Of a DNA stretch of 64,000 nucleotides, positions 1-47,087 are shown in pieces. The notes under the pieces are model-generated. The model had not been told where the DNA came from. It worked only from the letters and a program-made list of their open reading frames with translations, and did no database searches. This stretch comes from a virus (taxonomy: Duplodnaviria; Caudoviricetes): IMG/VR virus record IMGVR_UViG_3300020577_011395, positions 1 to 64,000 of that record; one strand, 5' to 3'. The position numbers and the translations under genes were made by a program. Within the stretch, counting starts at the first letter, position 1; each line of letters opens with the position of its first letter.

Positions 1-83
1 AAAAATTTATGTATATCAATACTTCACATATTATTGCTGCGTGGTATATTGAAACTGAATAAGCACGTATAACAATAATACTA

Positions 84-112
84 TTGACAGCCTGCTAGGT
101 TTGTGCTAGAGT
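84..112 (+). promoter_or_regulatory. sigma70-type promoter
   Basis: TTGACA-17 bp-TAGAGT with TG extended -10; preceded by AATAATACTA, also seen before the promoter at 8285. Confidence 0.75.
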
Positions 113-148
113 CTTTGAACAGTCGAGAAAACCACAAAAGAGGTTAAC

Positions 149-388
149 ATGGAAAATGCTTTGAAGTGGGCAACAACATTTGTTATATCATTTATACTAA
201 TTGTGTTTATTGCAAATGTTTTGACTGCTCTTTCTACTATTAGTGTTGACAAGAAAGAACTTCAAGAACAATTTCCAATTGTTCTAGGCGAGCTTCATTG
301 TCGCAAATTGTCTGATGGTTGTTACCACTGCAAACGTCCATATGCTGTTGGAAATCATGTTGCAAAAGACGAACTTGTGTGCCACTAA
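149..388 (+). CDS. hypothetical membrane protein
   Basis: GAGG RBS; N-terminal hydrophobic helix; Cys-rich C-terminus. Confidence 0.6.
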   Translation: MENALKWATTFVISFILIVFIANVLTALSTISVDKKELQEQFPIVLGELHCRKLSDGCYHCKRPYAVGNHVAKDELVCH

Positions 389-432
389 AAAGTAAAAAGT
401 TAGCTAACCTCTTAACACACACTGGAGAAAAC

Positions 433-771
433 ATGCAGATTCTTTCTGGTAACAACACGTTTAAGCTTCTTTGCAAGACAACAAATAAATTTGGTATTCT
501 TCTTTCGCAAAGCTGGGATGTTAATTCTGATCAATATAGTTTTGAAGAAACTGCAAAAGCCGTTCCTTTTCTTGATAGCTTCAAGGATGCACAACTATTT
601 GTAGATGGGGTTGGAATTATTCTATTTGATACAGAAGCCGAAATGAGGGATGCCTTTTCACAAGTTGTTGGAGACGATGGACCAACAAAGAATAATCCCT
701 ATAATGGCCCTGCTCGCTGGTATGCCCTTTCTTGTGACAACAACGGTAATCTCTTGACAGAAAACACTTAA
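433..771 (+). CDS. hypothetical protein
   Basis: GGAG RBS before ATG at 433 (MQILSG...). Confidence 0.6.
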   Translation: MQILSGNNTFKLLCKTTNKFGILLSQSWDVNSDQYSFEETAKAVPFLDSFKDAQLFVDGVGIILFDTEAEMRDAFSQVVGDDGPTKNNPYNGPARWYALSCDNNGNLLTENT

Positions 772-788
772 TAAACATATGGGGATAT

Positions 789-866
789 GGCTCTGTAGTC
801 CAATTGGTAGGAGACATTTGACTTAAAATCAAAACAGTGTCGGTCCGAATCCGACCAGAGCCACCA
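789..866 (+). tRNA. tRNA-Leu(TAA), short variable arm
   Basis: acceptor GGCTCTG/CAGAGCC-A-CCA; anticodon arm TTTGA-CTTAAAA-TCAAA; T-loop TCCGAAT. Confidence 0.9.
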
Positions 867-904
867 AATATTTCGTATAATCTTTGTCTACCACCTATTT
901 ATAG

Positions 905-1507
905 GTGGAGGCAAATAACATGGAGATGTGCCATTTAGGCTGTGGACAAGAAGCAAAATATAAAAATAAGCAAGGAAAGTATGTATGTAGCCAGTATTCT
1001 ACGCAGTGTATTCAAGTACGATTAAAAAATAGTGCCGGTTTAAAAAAAGCATTTAAGGAAAATCGCAAACGAACCCCGTTTAATCAAAAAGATTTAGAAC
1101 AATCACGCATTTCAAGAGAAAAGAATCTTTCTTCTGTTCCTTTTGAGAAACAAAGTTGGGAGCGACAAAGAAAAACGGTTCTTGCAGAACAAGATAACAA
1201 ATGCTTGATATGCGGATTATCAGAATGGCAAGGGCACAAAATAAAACTTCAAGTAGATCACATAGACGGCAACTGGTCTAATGATGCTAGAAATAACCTA
1301 AGAGCGTTATGCCCCAATTGCCACAGCAATACTGAAACTTATTGTAGTAAAAACATTAATACTAGAAAAAAAGTTGAAGATTCAAGAATAATTGAAGAAA
1401 TAAATAAAGGACTTTCGATTAGAAAAATACTAATAAATGTTGGGTTGACACCGAAAGGTGGCAACTACGAAAGAGTAAATAAACTCAGATACAAATATCC
1501 GTCTTAA
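905..1507 (+). CDS. HNH homing endonuclease
   Basis: CxxC...VDHIDGN...N...NLRALCPNCHS motif; paralogue of 40659..41279. Confidence 0.9.
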   Translation: MEANNMEMCHLGCGQEAKYKNKQGKYVCSQYSTQCIQVRLKNSAGLKKAFKENRKRTPFNQKDLEQSRISREKNLSSVPFEKQSWERQRKTVLAEQDNKCLICGLSEWQGHKIKLQVDHIDGNWSNDARNNLRALCPNCHSNTETYCSKNINTRKKVEDSRIIEEINKGLSIRKILINVGLTPKGGNYERVNKLRYKYPS

Positions 1508-1542
1508 ATGATGTATCGGTTCGAGTCCGACTATCCCTACCA
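1497..1542 (+). pseudogene. 3' half of a disrupted long-variable-arm tRNA (probably Leu); 5' remnant GGGGATATGG at 781-790
   Basis: variable arm CGTC/GATG, T-arm TCGG-TTCGAGT-CCGA, and TATCCCT-A-CCA which pairs with GGGGATA at 781-787. Confidence 0.8.
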
Positions 1543-1578
1543 ATTTAGTTTTAACATTCAACAAAAGGAATAAATAAA

Positions 1579-1779
1579 ATGATTTTCATTCTTATTGTGT
1601 GTTATGTGAGTATCGGCATTATCGTTGCTGGTATTGCTGACGGGCTTGAAAATACTCAAGATCCTAGTTTTGGTTTCATTTGTTTTTGGCCTTTGGTTGT
1701 ATTGGCTTTCATAGCTATGAAGTCAGCACATTATCTATATAAGTTTGGTGTATACCTTGGAAAAGAGTCAAACAAGTGA
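1579..1779 (+). CDS. small membrane protein
   Basis: two hydrophobic segments; FWP motif. Confidence 0.6.
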   Translation: MIFILIVCYVSIGIIVAGIADGLENTQDPSFGFICFWPLVVLAFIAMKSAHYLYKFGVYLGKESNK

Positions 1780-2084
1780 TCCTTAAAAATAGGGCATTCT
1801 GCCTTGAATGTAATACGGAAATCGAGTCCACGCATCGACATGATTTTGTTAGGTGTCCTTGTGGTAATCTAGCTGTGGACGGTGGAAAAGATTATCTTAA
1901 GCGTTCGGCTAAAGACTTTAACAAGATTAAAGACACAAGCATTATCGTAGAAGAGAAAACAGCAGAAGAACTTTCATACGATGAAAAACTTACCCAATGT
2001 CACAGATATGGTCTTTGTTGTATGAAAGACTATGTTAAACAAAAATGGGAATCAACTTGTGATATCTGCCCACATAGGATTTAA
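1776..2084 (+). CDS. Zn-binding phage protein
   Basis: CxxC...RHDFVRCPCGNLAVDGG motif common in phage hypotheticals. Confidence 0.65.
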   Translation: MILKNRAFCLECNTEIESTHRHDFVRCPCGNLAVDGGKDYLKRSAKDFNKIKDTSIIVEEKTAEELSYDEKLTQCHRYGLCCMKDYVKQKWESTCDICPHRI

Positions 2085-2107
2085 CAACTTTATAAAAGAG
2101 TTCGCGA

Positions 2108-3604
2108 ATGCACATTAAAACAGGCGATTTGTTTAGCGGAAGATATAATGGTTTTCTTTATGTTGTTACAGATAAAGAAAACGGCTTAAAACCTACATTT
2201 CGTTTGTTTTCATTAACATCATCGAGGTATATCTTTGAAAGAGATATTACGTTGATAGACCCATATGTGTATGTGAAACTAACCTAAATGAATATCAAAT
2301 CTGGTGATTTGTATCAAAGTATAAAATATGGTTTTATGTATGTTATTCTGAATAAGCGTAACGTAGATGAAACTTATAATGTATATGATGTATCAGATAG
2401 AAAAATACGGTGGGAGAGGACAGCTAATCTTAGCAATTCAAATATTTATAGGAAGTTAGCATAATGCCAAATATTAAAATTGGTGACGTATTCATCAACC
2501 GCACAAAAGAATTAGTTGTTGTCGTTGCGCAACATAAATATTTAAAAGATCATTATCACTTTTATTACATAAAGTATAATGTTAAATGCATAGTGAGTAT
2601 TAATTCTGATTTTAACTATTGGTACAAAAGGCTAACAAATGATTAAGCCTGGCGATTTGTTTATAACTTCCTATTTGTATTCTTATTTTGTTATTATATC
2701 TGGGCCTTTAGGCAATATTTATGCAGGTTATGATTTAAAGTCAGCACGAACTTATTTCGAGAGTGAAGGCGCTTTGTTAGATCCTCTCTTTTATAAAAAG
2801 GTGGCATAATGTCAAATATAAAAAATTGGTGATGTGTTTATTTGGCAATTATCAGAACCGCCAGAAATTGTTATCATTGTTAGCGAAGAGTACAAGCATC
2901 ATTATCCGATAGATATGAAATTGCACAAATTTTATAATCTAACGCTTGAAAGGTTTGAAATAGACGAGCCGCACAATCTTCTAAGCGCATCTCATTATAC
3001 CAGGTTAGTTGCAGAGAACAACAATGGTTAAAATTGGGAAAGTGTTTGTCTGGGTTTTTGGAACGCCAGCAATTTCAATTATTATTGGAAAAGTAGGAAA
3101 ATATAATTATAGATTGTATAATATGACTTTTGATAGATTTGAAATACACACTAAGGCCGAACTTCTAGATAAAAGATATTATAGAGAGCTTACTCCAAAT
3201 GATTAAACCTGGGCAAGTGTTTATTTTCCAAAGTGGAAGAACACCAGAGATAATGATTGTTATTTCAGAAGAAAAGCAGTATTATTCTTGTAAAGGTCAT
3301 GCGCTTTACAACTTAACTTTACAAAAGTTTGAATGGGATGAAACCTCACTTCTGAAAAATATTAAAAATTATAAAGAGCTTACTTATGGAGAATAAAGAA
3401 ATTAAAGTTGGTGATATATTTCTTGGTATATTCAACCACCCAAACCCTTGTATATTCAACCACCCAAACCCTTGTATGTTTATTATTCTAGATGAGATAA
3501 AAGAGCATCAAGGATTTAAAACTTACAACATAAATACTGGTGTTAAAAATTGGGATAGTATTACCGCTTTTAATAATTCAAAACTTTATACCAAACTTAC
3601 CTAA
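2108..3604 (+). CDS. tandem cluster of 8 small KxGD paralogues (2108-2287, 2288-2464, 2464-2646, 2639-2809, frameshifted ~2809-3031, 3024-3206, 3199-3396, 3386-3604)
   Basis: shared IKxGD(L/V)F N-terminus and YxxL C-terminus; overlapping start and stop codons. Confidence 0.75.
3427..3477 (+). repeat. in-frame 24-bp tandem duplication
   Basis: TATATTCAACCACCCAAACCCTTG x2 (IFNHPNPC x2). Confidence 0.95.
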
Positions 3605-3636
3605 TAATATATATTTTCTTTGAAAGCGGTTGGAAT

Positions 3637-4959
3637 ATGATAAATGGTCCCAAAGTTGGAGAAATATGGGCGCAGCATAACTTTTATTATCTTATATTGA
3701 AAGTCGACTTTGAAAGTGTAGATCTATTTTCGTTTACACGTGCAGAAATATTTTCAAGTTTTCCGATTAAGTATTTTGTAAACGGCTCTTGGGTTAAACA
3801 ATGTTAAAAAATAATCCAAAAGTAGGAGAAATATGGTGCTATGAAAAAGAAAAGTATATAGTTCTAGATATTATTATACAACAAGAAGAAACATATATTA
3901 ATTTTGCTTGTTTAGACAGCGATGATTTTGGAGCCTTATATGGCGATTACGAGCTTAGTGAAATGCAAACGCCATTTTGGAAGAAATTAGTTTAATTATT
4001 AAACAAGGAGCAATATAAAATGTATTCCATCACAAATATTATTTACGGTTATCCTATCACAACTGAAATTTCTAATCTTATTATCAAAAAAGAAGAAGAC
4101 CCAAATTCAGACTGGAACGAAGACAATGATATGGTTTGTGGCTTTAATAAGTATTATCATGGTTCTAGTGATTGTATTGTAGGATATGTTGGTGTCGAGC
4201 TAGATTCATTTGATGAATGCGGTGAAATGCTCAAACCTAGTAGCCTTAAGATGCAGCCGACAGAAAAACAAAAGCAGCAAGCTCTTAAAAAGATTAATGC
4301 GCTCACACCAGATTTCAAAAAGCTTGTTGGCGAGCCTGACGTATTCTTTGTTTTCTCAACATCGTAATGCGTAAAGTATCATATAATCCTAGTAAAGCTA
4401 AGCCAGGTGATTTATTCTTTTATCATAATTGGGATGGTAGTTTAAATTTTAAAATTGTTGTTAAGACAAGCCCTGTTTTATTGGTATATCATTGGAAGCA
4501 AAAAACGGTAGTTCAGTATACACCCACTAAAGAGTTTGATTACCACACTTATGTAGAGTGACATAAAAACATGGCGAATAATAAGCCCACTAAAGGAGAA
4601 ATTTGGGCATTTAAAGAACAAAGATATCTTATTTTAGAAACTTATTACAAAGATTTAGATTATACAAGTTTGTTTCCACTAGATTTACAAAATACTGATA
4701 TAATCGTATATCCTTTATATCATTTTACTAATATGTACTGGAAAAAAATATGTTAATTAAACCTAAAATTGGAGAAATCTGGCAATATGGTAAAAATGCA
4801 GGTCTTAAACCCTTTGGAAACTGCTATCTTATATTAAATGTAGTTACTAAATATATTGATTTATGTTGTATTGAAAATCTTATTAAAGGTGAAGTTAAAA
4901 AATTTTCGCTTTATCCGCAATCTTCATTTGATAATGATGAATGGTATAAGATTTGCTAA
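3637..4959 (+). CDS. cluster of PKxGEIW small paralogues plus hypothetical 4020-4367
   Basis: PK(V/I)GEIW...W(K/Y)K motif in the ORFs at ~3637, 3801, 4571 and 4750. Confidence 0.7.
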
Positions 4960-5202
4960 AAAAGGTATTATATGCGATTTAAAAAAGGTCATATATATTC
5001 CGAAAAGAACAGTAATACAAGAGAAAAAAGTATTCTATTCTTATTTTTAGATGACAATTGTTCTATAAAAGGTATTGCTAGTATTTCACCATATTGTTAT
5101 AATGAACGAAACCCGCTTGGCGATTTTACTATAGATACTAAGTATTATATTTATAGAGATTTAACTCCTGAACTAAAATAAGAAAATATTACTTTATTAC
5201 TA

Positions 5203-5231
5203 TTGACAAACAAAATGGTTTGTGCTATGGT
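5203..5231 (+). promoter_or_regulatory. sigma70-type promoter
   Basis: TTGACA-17-TATGGT, TG extended. Confidence 0.7.
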
Positions 5232-5679
5232 GTGGGTTCAATGACTACAAAAACAATTAAAATCGGTGACATATTAGAAGAAAAGTCTTATATTGGTTCT
5301 GCTTTTTTTGTTGTGTTAGATATAGAAAACAAGAAAGGTAGTATAACTTTGTTTAGGGTAGACAACAGTAAGATATTGCCTAGCTGGAGTCTTTCGGATG
5401 TAAGAAATCGTCTTACAAATCAGAGTTTTAACAGCGTGGCTTCGCATAGATATAAGATTCATTCGGGTAAGACAAACAAAGGGCAAAACAAAAATGAAGA
5501 ACAATAAAGATAATAACCTCTCGCCGTTCCAAACCATTTACGATAAGCGTTCAAACATCAAGATGAAACACATGAACAAAAAGTATGAAGATAACAAGCG
5601 TAAACAGCACATGGATGAAGAAGAAGATTATTATGATCCTGCAATTCCTGGTCTAACCGAAGAATAGAGTAAAAAACTA

Positions 5680-6042
5680 ATGGGCTATTACACTAATTAC
5701 AAATTAGAAATTACTGGCAATCCAGATAAGGTTGATGCTTTTTACGAGGCCACAAAGATCAAACATCGCTTTAGGGATAAACTGCTTAATTACGAAGAGC
5801 GTTCTGAAATTGAAATATTACATGAAATGCTAGAAGCTACTTTCAATAGTAAATTTTATAATCACGAACAATTTTTTCTAAAACTGTCAAGCAATGATCA
5901 GAACCGAGATTTGCTGTTTACTGTAGACGGAGAAGGCGAAGAATCTGGAGATATTTGGAAAAAGTATTTTAAGAATGGTAAGATGTTTGTATCCCAAGGC
6001 AGAATCGTCTTTGATGACTTTGATGAAAGCAAACTAACATGA
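5680..6042 (+). CDS. conserved phage hypothetical
   Basis: MGYYTNY...GEGEESGDIWKKYFKNGK pattern. Confidence 0.65.
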   Translation: MGYYTNYKLEITGNPDKVDAFYEATKIKHRFRDKLLNYEERSEIEILHEMLEATFNSKFYNHEQFFLKLSSNDQNRDLLFTVDGEGEESGDIWKKYFKNGKMFVSQGRIVFDDFDESKLT

Positions 6043-40562: not shown

Positions 40563-40639
40563 CCGGGTGTAGCTCAGTCGCGAAGAGCATCTGATTTGGG
40601 ATCAGAAGGCCGCAGGTTCGATTCCTGTCACCCGGACCA
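40563..40639 (+). tRNA. tRNA-Pro(TGG)
   Basis: cloverleaf; TCTGA-TTTGGGA-TCAGA; CCA. Confidence 0.92.
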
Positions 40640-40658
40640 ACCTTCTGAGAAGGTATTA

Positions 40659-41279
40659 ATGAAGTTAAGCGAAATCTCGATAGAAGAACTTTCTAAAATT
40701 ACTAAAGAAAGTTCTTCGTATGCTGAAGTCTTCCGACGTTTGGGAAGAAAGACCCATAGTGGCATGGGCCTAAAATATTTAAAGATAAAGTTAGAAGAAA
40801 ATAATATAGATGTTGGACATTTTAAAAGAGTTATAAAGCCAAATTCTATACCTAGATTAACAGCAGAAACAATTTTTCAAGATAACTATAAAATAAGATG
40901 TACCGCAAAAAAATTAAGAAAAACTCTTTTAAGTGTTGGCGTTGAACATAAATGTGCTGTATGTTCATTAACAACTTGGCAAAATAATAAAATTGTTTTA
41001 GAAATAGATCATATAGATGGCAATCCGCTAAACAACAAGATAGAAAATTTAAGATTTATATGTCCCAACTGCCACTCGCAAACGAATAATTATGGTTCTA
41101 AAAATATGAAAAAACAAACCAAGAAAGTTTATATAAAGCGCCAACGAAAAACAAAAATAAATTGGCCTTCAAAAGAAAAGCTACAAGAACTTCTAGACAA
41201 GAATTCTTTTGAAGAAGCTGCAAGATTTCTTGGTGTATCATCAAATGCAATTAGAAAAAGACTAAAAAAGGAGTATTAG
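40659..41279 (+). CDS. HNH homing endonuclease with C-terminal HTH
   Basis: CAVC...EIDHIDGN...NLRFICPNCHS; AARFLGVSSNAIRKRL. Confidence 0.9.
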   Translation: MKLSEISIEELSKITKESSSYAEVFRRLGRKTHSGMGLKYLKIKLEENNIDVGHFKRVIKPNSIPRLTAETIFQDNYKIRCTAKKLRKTLLSVGVEHKCAVCSLTTWQNNKIVLEIDHIDGNPLNNKIENLRFICPNCHSQTNNYGSKNMKKQTKKVYIKRQRKTKINWPSKEKLQELLDKNSFEEAARFLGVSSNAIRKRLKKEY

Positions 41280-42081: not shown

Positions 42082-42120
42082 GGGGAAGCGGCAAAGTTGG
42101 AGAGTTGGAGTGGACTATAA
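42082..42120 (+). pseudogene. 5' half of a disrupted tRNA (probably Tyr)
   Basis: GGGGAAG-CG-GCAAAGTTGGAGAGTTGG-A-GTGGA-CTATAA, stops in the anticodon loop; directly after a promoter. Confidence 0.7.
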
Positions 42121-42158
42121 TAAATTTAACCTTTCAATTTTTCAAAACTATATATAGT

Positions 42159-42680
42159 ATGAACACTATAAAATGTAAAAGTTGTCAAGAATATTTTGAA
42201 GTTACTGCCAATACTAAAAGAAAAATTTTTTGTAATAGAAAGTGTTCTGCTCAATATAATAATAAGCGTAGAATAGTTTCTGAATCTACAAGACTAAAAT
42301 ATAGTGAAAATCTCAAAAATAGAATTAAAGTGAATGGCCCACTAACTTCCGGGGAAACGGCTATAAAATATGGCTCGGATAGTCAAAAAGGCAAGCATAA
42401 TAAAGAAATAAAATCAATTTATGAATGTTCCTCTCGTACTAGAGAAAAAATAATTAAACGCTTAAAAATGGGTTGTTCTAGGTGTGGTTGGTCTGAAGGT
42501 AATGGCGACATACATCATATAAATGGAAGAAAAATAGAAGACGCTAATAATATGTCAAATCTTTGTTATTTGTGCCCTAATTGTCATAGATTATGTCACG
42601 AAGGCAAAATATTAAAAGAATCTTTAATTCCTTTATCAAAAACAATACCTGAAAACTGGAAAGAATATTATTATGGTTGA
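42159..42680 (+). CDS. HNH homing endonuclease
   Basis: CKSC..FCNRKC N-domain; CSRC...DIHHI...NLCYLCPNCHRLCH. Confidence 0.88.
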   Translation: MNTIKCKSCQEYFEVTANTKRKIFCNRKCSAQYNNKRRIVSESTRLKYSENLKNRIKVNGPLTSGETAIKYGSDSQKGKHNKEIKSIYECSSRTREKIIKRLKMGCSRCGWSEGNGDIHHINGRKIEDANNMSNLCYLCPNCHRLCHEGKILKESLIPLSKTIPENWKEYYYG

Positions 42681-47009: not shown

Positions 47010-47087
47010 GGCCCTCTAGCGCAACAGGTAGGAGGCAGCAGACTCAAAATCTGTACAGTGTGGGTTCGAATCCCACGGGGGCCACCA
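47010..47087 (+). tRNA. tRNA-Leu(CAA), short variable arm
   Basis: GCAGA-CTCAAAA-TCTGT; variable region ACAGT. Confidence 0.88.

Follow-up and report, generated by a model that had tools for sequence, protein, structure and literature searches.

When a phage has no copy of SegB, an endonuclease of phage T4, its tRNA genes are cut by that enzyme, and the SegB gene is passed on along with the tRNA genes beside it (PMC2330249). Co-location with tRNAs is widespread among SegB homologs (PMC13096335). The locus described here lies in IMGVR_UViG_3300020577_011395, a 129 kb IMG/VR virus record (GC content 34%, ~40% complete, 29 tRNA genes), the first 64 kb of which were analysed and are called the window. 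An intact HNH homing-endonuclease gene and a complete tRNA-Leu(UAA) gene are nested between what are recognisable, from pairing and homology, as the two ends of one long-arm tRNA-Leu(UAA) gene. The arrangement is probably what was left after a homing endonuclease invaded a tRNA gene, with a spare tRNA-Leu(UAA) instead of a self-splicing intron to offset the loss.

Intronless homing is represented in T4 by SegB, SegF, SegG and mobE. The likeness to the window locus lies in the free-standing nuclease gene and, for SegB, also in the position in a phage tRNA region. SegB differs in being a GIY-YIG enzyme that recognises a T-arm motif and lies between intact tRNA genes, and it is not described as nested in a broken gene with a same-isotype spare. 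The window enzyme is an HNH protein of another family, by its genomic placement tied to tRNA-Leu and to the anticodon loop.

Collaborative homing is described for F-CphI with the psbA intron of cyanophage S-PM2, which has no open reading frame (ORF), and for mobE with the I-TevIII intron (PMC3984707). The nearest relatives of the window HNH share this layout. An intron in the adjacent target gene, the mark of a collaborative pair, was found at L015, L016, L024, L025 and L027, but not in the window (L-numbers, L002-L115, are compared loci or contigs; X1-X5 are sequencing runs; G001 is the viral record with L007). The window locus has no intron, holds a spare tRNA in place of the intron-protected allele, and has an RNA gene, not a protein gene, as the putative target.

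The group I intron of cyanobacterial and plastid tRNA-Leu(UAA) occupies the same insertion site, U34/A35, and its core is recognisably related to those at L015, L025, L026 and L081. The classical intron is not known to hold an ORF and is treated as immobile. The present loci differ from it: a homing-endonuclease family lies in or beside the intron in phage and bacterial contigs, and the window is without a ribozyme.

HNH genes of T4-like coliphages, some annotated F-TflIV (F-TflI, II and IV are HNH nicking endonucleases of the T5 tRNA region), are 46-47% identical to the window HNH over residues 94-189, the stretch of the HNH core and the C-terminal module. In vB_EcoM_OE5505 the homologous HNH gene lies 6 nt upstream of tRNA-Leu(taa). 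These genes differ in the N-terminal part and no broken-tRNA remnants were seen there; the name F-TflIV is a database annotation.

Synthetic cleave-and-rescue drives link a nuclease that ruins a needed gene to a divergent working copy, and fungal mitochondrial homing-endonuclease genes bring a replacement 3' end of the host gene. The logic is alike, but those cases are engineered or concern part of a protein gene, whereas the putative rescue here is a whole natural tRNA. No account of such nesting, or of an HNH gene in or beside a tRNA-Leu(UAA) intron, was found in a literature search that left out most subscription journals. The locus differs from all of these systems in its nesting in a broken gene of the same isotype and in the spare gene that replaces the intron.

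Structure of the locus

The following features were recognised, all on the + strand.

781-791, +, 5' stub of the outer long-arm tRNA-Leu(UAA): acceptor 5' strand GGGGATA plus U8, G9, G10 (C11); reads GGGGATATGGC.
789-866, +, inner tRNA-Leu(UAA): complete, 78 nt, encoded CCA (ARAGORN; Rfam tRNA 62.6 bits, cut-off 29).
867-919, +, leader of the HNH gene: 53 nt, with the motif GTCTACC at 886-892 and a hairpin at ~883-913.
920-1507, +, HNH homing-endonuclease gene: 195 aa, intact (conserved-residue alignment, AlphaFold, 199 homologs).
1507-1548, +, 3' remnant of the outer tRNA-Leu(UAA), 93% identical to G001/L007 and aligned with three intact genes: variable-arm 3' strand; T arm 1515-1531; TATCCCT 1532-1538; A73; CCA 1540-1542; trailer AATTTA(G).

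Stub and inner tRNA overlap, and base 1507 is both the last base of the HNH stop codon and the first base of the remnant. Both junctions are crossed with zero differences by contigs from four other runs of three studies, independently assembled (X2, 300-1030; X4, 777-934; X3, 1423-1892; X5, 1401-1590). No contig skipping the cassette was seen in the four runs, which is no evidence for the absence of empty alleles. In the strain of run X2, at least 255 nt of other sequence lie between 1547 and 1559, directly after the remnant trailer; this looks like a second variable spot bordering the old tRNA gene.

The broken outer tRNA-Leu(UAA)

The pairing of stub and remnant read by the first-pass annotation holds: GGGGATA (781-787) pairs with TATCCCT (1532-1538) at 7/7 positions with one G-U, and A-CCA follows at 1539-1542. 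On its + strand the 64-kb window holds 18 heptamers that can pair with TATCCCT at all seven positions, and T[AG]G follows just one of them, at 781. It lies 8 nt before the inner tRNA, and the chance of such a site within 10 nt of that tRNA is ~0.0002.

The remnant is homologous to real tRNA genes. In a blastn comparison of window positions 1-6000 with G001, the sole match was 1507-1548 (93% identity, E 1e-11). An exact search of viral contigs for the T arm plus acceptor of the remnant returned one intact tRNA-Leu(UAA), L007. A metagenome scan returned the intact tRNA-Leu(UAA) L112:576-664, in which the 5' end, GGGGATATGG, and the 3' end are both as in the outer gene, and a genome scan returned a Saccharibacteria metagenome-assembled genome (MAG), L115, whose tRNA-Leu(UAA) carries the T arm and acceptor of the remnant. 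Across L007/L113, L112 and L115 the T arm, the acceptor 3' strand and ACCA are all as in the remnant. The stub is identical to L112:576-585 and one base off from L007 and L115. A non-Leu anticodon in the relatives of the remnant would have spoken against a leucine gene; every intact relative (L007, L112, L115) carries a taa anticodon.

Positions ~12-46 of the outer gene are gone, with the D arm, the anticodon arm and the 5' half of the variable arm. What survives measures 11 nt on the 5' side and ~42 nt on the 3' side, and the lost middle is centred on the anticodon loop. The T arm is kept, as the first reading of the locus had it; of the long variable arm that it also listed, only the 3' strand is recognisable and no hairpin is left. 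The remnant (1507-1548) is without a significant fold (z -0.02), and in a cmscan of 1478-1560 it received no truncated-tRNA score. ARAGORN with introns allowed found no split tRNA-Leu, and lowered thresholds gave spurious calls only.

A functional split or trans-spliced tRNA was considered and rejected: the 5' piece is only 11 nt long and the D and anticodon arms are gone. Also rejected was the attL/attR pair of an integrase island, as no integrase is present and the two acceptor strands differ.

An intact tRNA-Leu with matching ends exists (L112); an unbroken allele in a syntenic relative was not found. Megablast of 20 kb against isolate phages returned no close relative of the window phage, the upstream ORF has only relatives of 39-53% identity, none syntenic, and G001, which has the intact outer-type tRNA, shares no flanking protein with the window. 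At positions 533-1713 of L112, a metagenome contig of 1.9 kb, a tRNA-Leu 5' half that stops at CTT precedes a series of five tRNA-Leu genes (taa, taa, caa, tag, aag); a shorter HNH variant separates the first of these from the second.

The inner tRNA-Leu(UAA)

The inner gene at 789-866 was called as a complete short-arm tRNA-Leu(TAA) by ARAGORN and Rfam, as first annotated. It has a UAA anticodon, a cloverleaf, A73, G18G19, U8/A14 and a Leu-type D arm. It lacks two class II or canonical traits: the variable region is 5 nt (ACAGT) without a long arm, and U55 is missing. The T loop reads TCCGAAT (843-849), with C55 where U is near-universal; no difference is listed there in the runs compared. 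Sole tRNA-Leu(UAA) in the 129-kb record. UUA is the commonest Leu codon (40% of Leu codons).

Two details of the first-pass annotation required correction. The bases shared by stub and inner tRNA are GG(C), not TGG. The short arm is real, and the inner tRNA belongs to a widespread phage short-arm tRNA-Leu family (5-nt variable region ACAGT, Leu-type D arm, A73). Members occur also at window 47010-47087 (CAA), L005:1495-1570 and L004:1420-1580, the hosts of the family being the window phage (UAA and CAA), Synechococcus phage Sf-FR1, Pseudomonas phage vB_PseuGesM_254 and many IMG/VR contigs. An exact search for the inner tRNA itself in viral contigs found none.

According to a review, tRNA-Leu retains the long arm everywhere but in animal mitochondria. 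The E. coli leucyl-tRNA synthetase (LeuRS) requires A73 and D/T-loop tertiary contacts but no long arm, and G18:U55 is important for leucylation in that species (PMC9976931). Since bacterial LeuRS can do without the long arm, a short-arm spare can plausibly work, and the inner tRNA is presumed to be charged with leucine.

The HNH gene and its leader

The HNH gene is free-standing: the ORF lies outside any intron and the neighbouring inner tRNA is uninterrupted. The description of the cassette as intron-less agrees with the searches, in which no Rfam group I or group II intron was found in 600-1800 (E up to 10) and a tRNA-Leu intron-core profile built from the relatives had no match anywhere in the window (E up to 10).

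Three parts make up the protein: a Cys4 module at the N terminus, the HNH/zinc core, and a helical module at the C terminus. The tail of the protein after ...NKLR is encoded by the junction. In a 30-member alignment that includes the window protein, all invariant residues are kept: the N-terminal Cys4, DHIDGN...N...LCPNCH with two CxxC pairs, and the C-terminal RQxLxxxGLxPKGxNY; among them H114, N126, H135 and C95/C98/C131/C134, which correspond to the catalytic His of DH, the Asn, the metal-binding His and the two CxxC zinc pairs expected of HNH endonucleases. Pfam HNH models score below cut-off (PF01844, 17.3 bits, cut-off 21.4; PF13392, 15.3, cut-off 24.8). A protein search gave 199 homologs, many with precomputed PF13392 matches. 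With the weak Pfam score, these matches mark the family as a divergent HNH branch. The AlphaFold model has a predicted local distance difference test (pLDDT) score of 87.9, and its best fold matches are HNH domains (Cap5, Cas9 HNH, GVE2 HNH, McrA). As first noted, the stop codon falls in the old variable arm; the remnant's variable-arm strand begins at the last base of that codon, 1507.

In the leader, a hairpin pairs the Shine-Dalgarno sequence GGAGG (-22.6 kcal/mol, z -4.5, 0/200 shuffles as good). The GTCTACC motif is common to the leaders at L015, L021, L022, L025, L032, L034 and L050, across configurations. The predicted fold suggests regulated translation of the HNH gene. Regulated translation is known for other phage homing-endonuclease genes.

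Association of the HNH family with tRNA-Leu(UAA)

Each of the nearest relatives of the window HNH (57-64% identity) follows, at a distance of 40-55 nt, a long-arm tRNA-Leu(UAA) with a group I intron, which is inserted in the anticodon loop between CTT and AAAA. Rfam Intron_gpI scores at or above gathering at L015, L016, L024, L025 and L027. L026 is a contig of 365 kb that carries bacterial-type genes; its HNH ORF is within the group I intron of a tRNA-Leu(UAA) that looks like a bacterial one, and Chloroherpetonaceae MAGs are the source given for near relatives of the L026 protein. In viral contigs, a profile search added 80 further loci. Among 72 non-redundant loci, the HNH gene lies inside a tRNA-Leu intron in 10, after an intron-containing tRNA-Leu in 7, and abutting an intronless tRNA-Leu in at least 16. 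The intron-borne HNH of L081 sits in a short-arm tRNA-Leu(UAA). Next to intronless tRNA-Leu, the stop codon of the ORF is often U8-A9-G10 of the tRNA.

In the maximum-likelihood tree, the window HNH falls within the clade of genes placed after an intron-bearing tRNA (support 92/91), with L026 as sister, and the configuration shifts at least 11 times across the tree. More distant family members adjoin Lys, Val, Thr and other tRNAs; full-length relatives are overwhelmingly with tRNA-Leu. Judged by placement, the comparison shows the HNH family as tied to the anticodon loop of tRNA-Leu(UAA). A comparison of anticodon arms by eye, across the inner tRNA, genes of the outer type and relatives with an intron, gave no sign of which would be cut: all have the loop CTTAAAA or a near variant. 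An empty site was sought in the L015 phage group, where 19/19 contigs are filled.

Two further loci with HNH homologs were recorded. In Erwinia phage pEa_SNUABM_50 (L006:1031-1152), an annotated 122-nt tRNA-Lys(ttt) has a ~46-nt insert in the anticodon stem 5' strand; Rfam calls no intron there, and an HNH homolog lies 60 nt after the tRNA. The other is a viral contig whose tRNA cluster includes a bacterial class A RNase P RNA (L002:3709-4033, 187 bits); an HNH homolog and a CTA-anticodon tRNA are close by.

Recurrence of the nested arrangement

A scan for triplets of half-tRNA, HNH gene and same-isotype tRNA had been proposed in the first-pass annotation; at least five further, unrelated loci are nested in this way. 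In each of the five below, the acceptor strand of the outer 3' remnant pairs with the outer 5' piece; outer and inner tRNAs vary by locus.

L015: stub GCCTCGGTGGTGGAATAG at 2115, intron-bearing tRNA-Leu, HNH gene, remnant GTTCAAGTCCCAC-CCGAGGC-ACCA at 3101.
L050/51: outer 5' half through CTT at 1107, HNH gene, complete tRNA-Leu(UAA), remnant at 1897.
L054: outer 5' piece at 1104, remnant at 1891.
L079: outer 5' piece at 1109, remnant at 1929; the broken gene is short-armed and the spare long-armed.
L100/102: outer 5' piece at 777, remnant at 1373; the inner gene is different and tRNA-like.

A strict scan asked for an orphan T arm plus acceptor after an HNH gene and, before that gene, a 7/7 partner followed by T[AG]G. 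It gave 8 pairs among 42 orphans, with 0.54 expected from cross-locus controls; 2 of the 8 are plain intron exons. The outer 5' piece breaks off within the anticodon loop at L050, L054 and L079, at the intron site of the sister elements. In the window and at L015 the deleted segment is centred on that intron insertion site. An exact search for an intact allele of the outer tRNA of L050 found none. The nesting at L100:777-1400 is window-like; its inner tRNA-like gene, with a GAA anticodon loop, is not called by ARAGORN, and its HNH variant is short.

Origin of the locus

In the first-pass annotation, a replacement tRNA-Leu was proposed to have come with an HNH cassette, free of any intron, that disrupted the original tRNA-Leu gene; comparison with the other loci supports this core reading. 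The link to the group I intron of tRNA-Leu was not part of that annotation. The mobile unit would be a complete tRNA-Leu(UAA), the leader and the HNH gene, landed in a resident long-arm tRNA-Leu(UAA). In a mixed infection, the HNH enzyme would cut or nick element-free tRNA-Leu(UAA) genes near the anticodon loop. The cut ends would be resected, and repair would copy the tRNA and HNH unit from the carrier genome, with microhomology at most. The resident gene would be destroyed, and the element's own divergent, short-arm tRNA would sustain UUA decoding. Its divergence would presumably spare it from re-cleavage and stop recombination with the remnants, the latter point being subject to survivorship bias. 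In sister elements, the ribozyme or its position would protect the carrier allele and keep the gene working; in the window the spare gene would take that role. The cleavage target, the immunity of the spare and insertion in one step are what we infer from the arrangement.

Several points weigh against this account. No relative with matching flanking genes and an unbroken outer tRNA was found, and the insertion event itself is unseen. The inner tRNA of the window is short-armed and intron-less, whereas that of the nearest HNH clade is long-armed and intron-bearing; the cargo was thus presumably swapped at some point, or the history may have had two steps. The junctions are illegitimate, the left with 2-3 nt of microhomology, GG(C), and the right with none evident, unlike clean classical homing. 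The anticodon loop CTTAAAA is identical in the inner tRNA and in target-type genes, so that immunity of the spare would have to rest on the stems or the arm. Finally, with C55 set against the need for G18:U55, the inner tRNA may fall short of full function.

The outer tRNA-Leu(UAA) could instead once have held a group I intron that bore the HNH gene and made the insertion harmless. Loss of the ribozyme core, together with the greater part of the 5' exon, would have come later, and a second tRNA-Leu(UAA), captured or retained, would have compensated for it. The HNH family is indeed intron-encoded at L026, L030, L040-44, L047-49, L052, L071 and L081, the tree has at least 11 configuration changes, and the outer 5' fragments of L050, L054 and L079 stop exactly at the intron insertion site. 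Such a decay is nevertheless unlikely for the window: its HNH belongs to a clade of free-standing genes after a tRNA 3' end, its leader is homologous to the leaders of free-standing relatives and not to intron 5' parts, no ribozyme trace is present, and the 11-nt stub, with the inner tRNA between stub and HNH gene, would call for extra rearrangements. Illegitimate recombination in a tRNA cluster might also have brought tRNA and HNH gene together, the enzyme having neither cut the gene nor any preference for tRNA-Leu. The microhomology-only junctions, the two other HNH genes wedged among other tRNAs in the window phage, and the distant family members beside Lys, Val, Thr and other tRNAs would suit such a scar. 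It is quite improbable, however, given that full-length relatives are overwhelmingly with tRNA-Leu, even inside its intron, that nesting is ~15-fold above the control rate, and that, in the window as at L015, the deletion has its centre at the intron insertion site. An assembly chimera, or a fortuitous 7-nt complementarity beside a T-arm-like motif, is scarcely credible: the record is a metagenomic assembly and cmscan gave the 3' piece no truncated-tRNA score, but the four other runs bridge both junctions without a difference, a stub at that place has the chance given above, and the match of the 42-nt remnant to a genuine tRNA gene has an E value of 1e-11.

Invasion by a homing endonuclease with a spare tRNA is the preferred reading. 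A wider version of it is put forward tentatively, and is rather to be doubted than accepted as a whole: a natural cleave-and-rescue drive on an RNA gene, in which the HNH enzyme would destroy the tRNA-Leu(UAA) of co-infecting phages, an immune, arm-less spare would restore decoding, and the package would spread without a ribozyme. The spare might also escape host nucleases that cut class II variable loops, as anti-defence cargo, and the HNH family, with its moves between free-standing and intron-internal positions, might be the missing mobility engine of the classical tRNA-Leu(UAA) intron.

Implications

Homing endonucleases have a few known ways to limit harm to the host: a place between genes, shelter in a self-splicing intron or intein, or the division of a gene into halves that remain functional. 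If the invasion account is true, wrecking a tRNA gene and paying with a spare of the same specificity would be a further strategy, near the logic of the engineered drives. It would explain why the tRNA clusters of phages contain orphan tRNA ends and tRNA-Leu genes that are doubled or odd, as well as the mosaic make-up of phage tRNA sets and the colonisation of an RNA gene by an endonuclease without a ribozyme. The HNH family would form a natural series: intron-encoded, beside an ORF-less intron, and intron-free with a spare. For the tRNA-Leu(UAA) intron, usually deemed immobile, the family suggests an agent of mobility. In annotation, tRNA pseudogene halves should be expected near HNH genes of this kind. 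T4-like phages in culture whose HNH homolog adjoins tRNA-Leu(UAA) offer a test bench.

Other features of the window

Two further HNH ORFs lie within the main tRNA cluster, at 40596-41279 and 42105-42680. They are 51% and 31% identical, respectively, to the 920-1507 protein over partial length, and the end of each extends into the 5' end of the tRNA that follows (Asp at 41270; Tyr at 42675). A tandem run of ~ten small ORFs (56-72 aa) occupies 2108-3995, a short way downstream of the cassette. Several start with a similar motif, M..IK.GD.F; paralogy is only an impression from unaligned translations.

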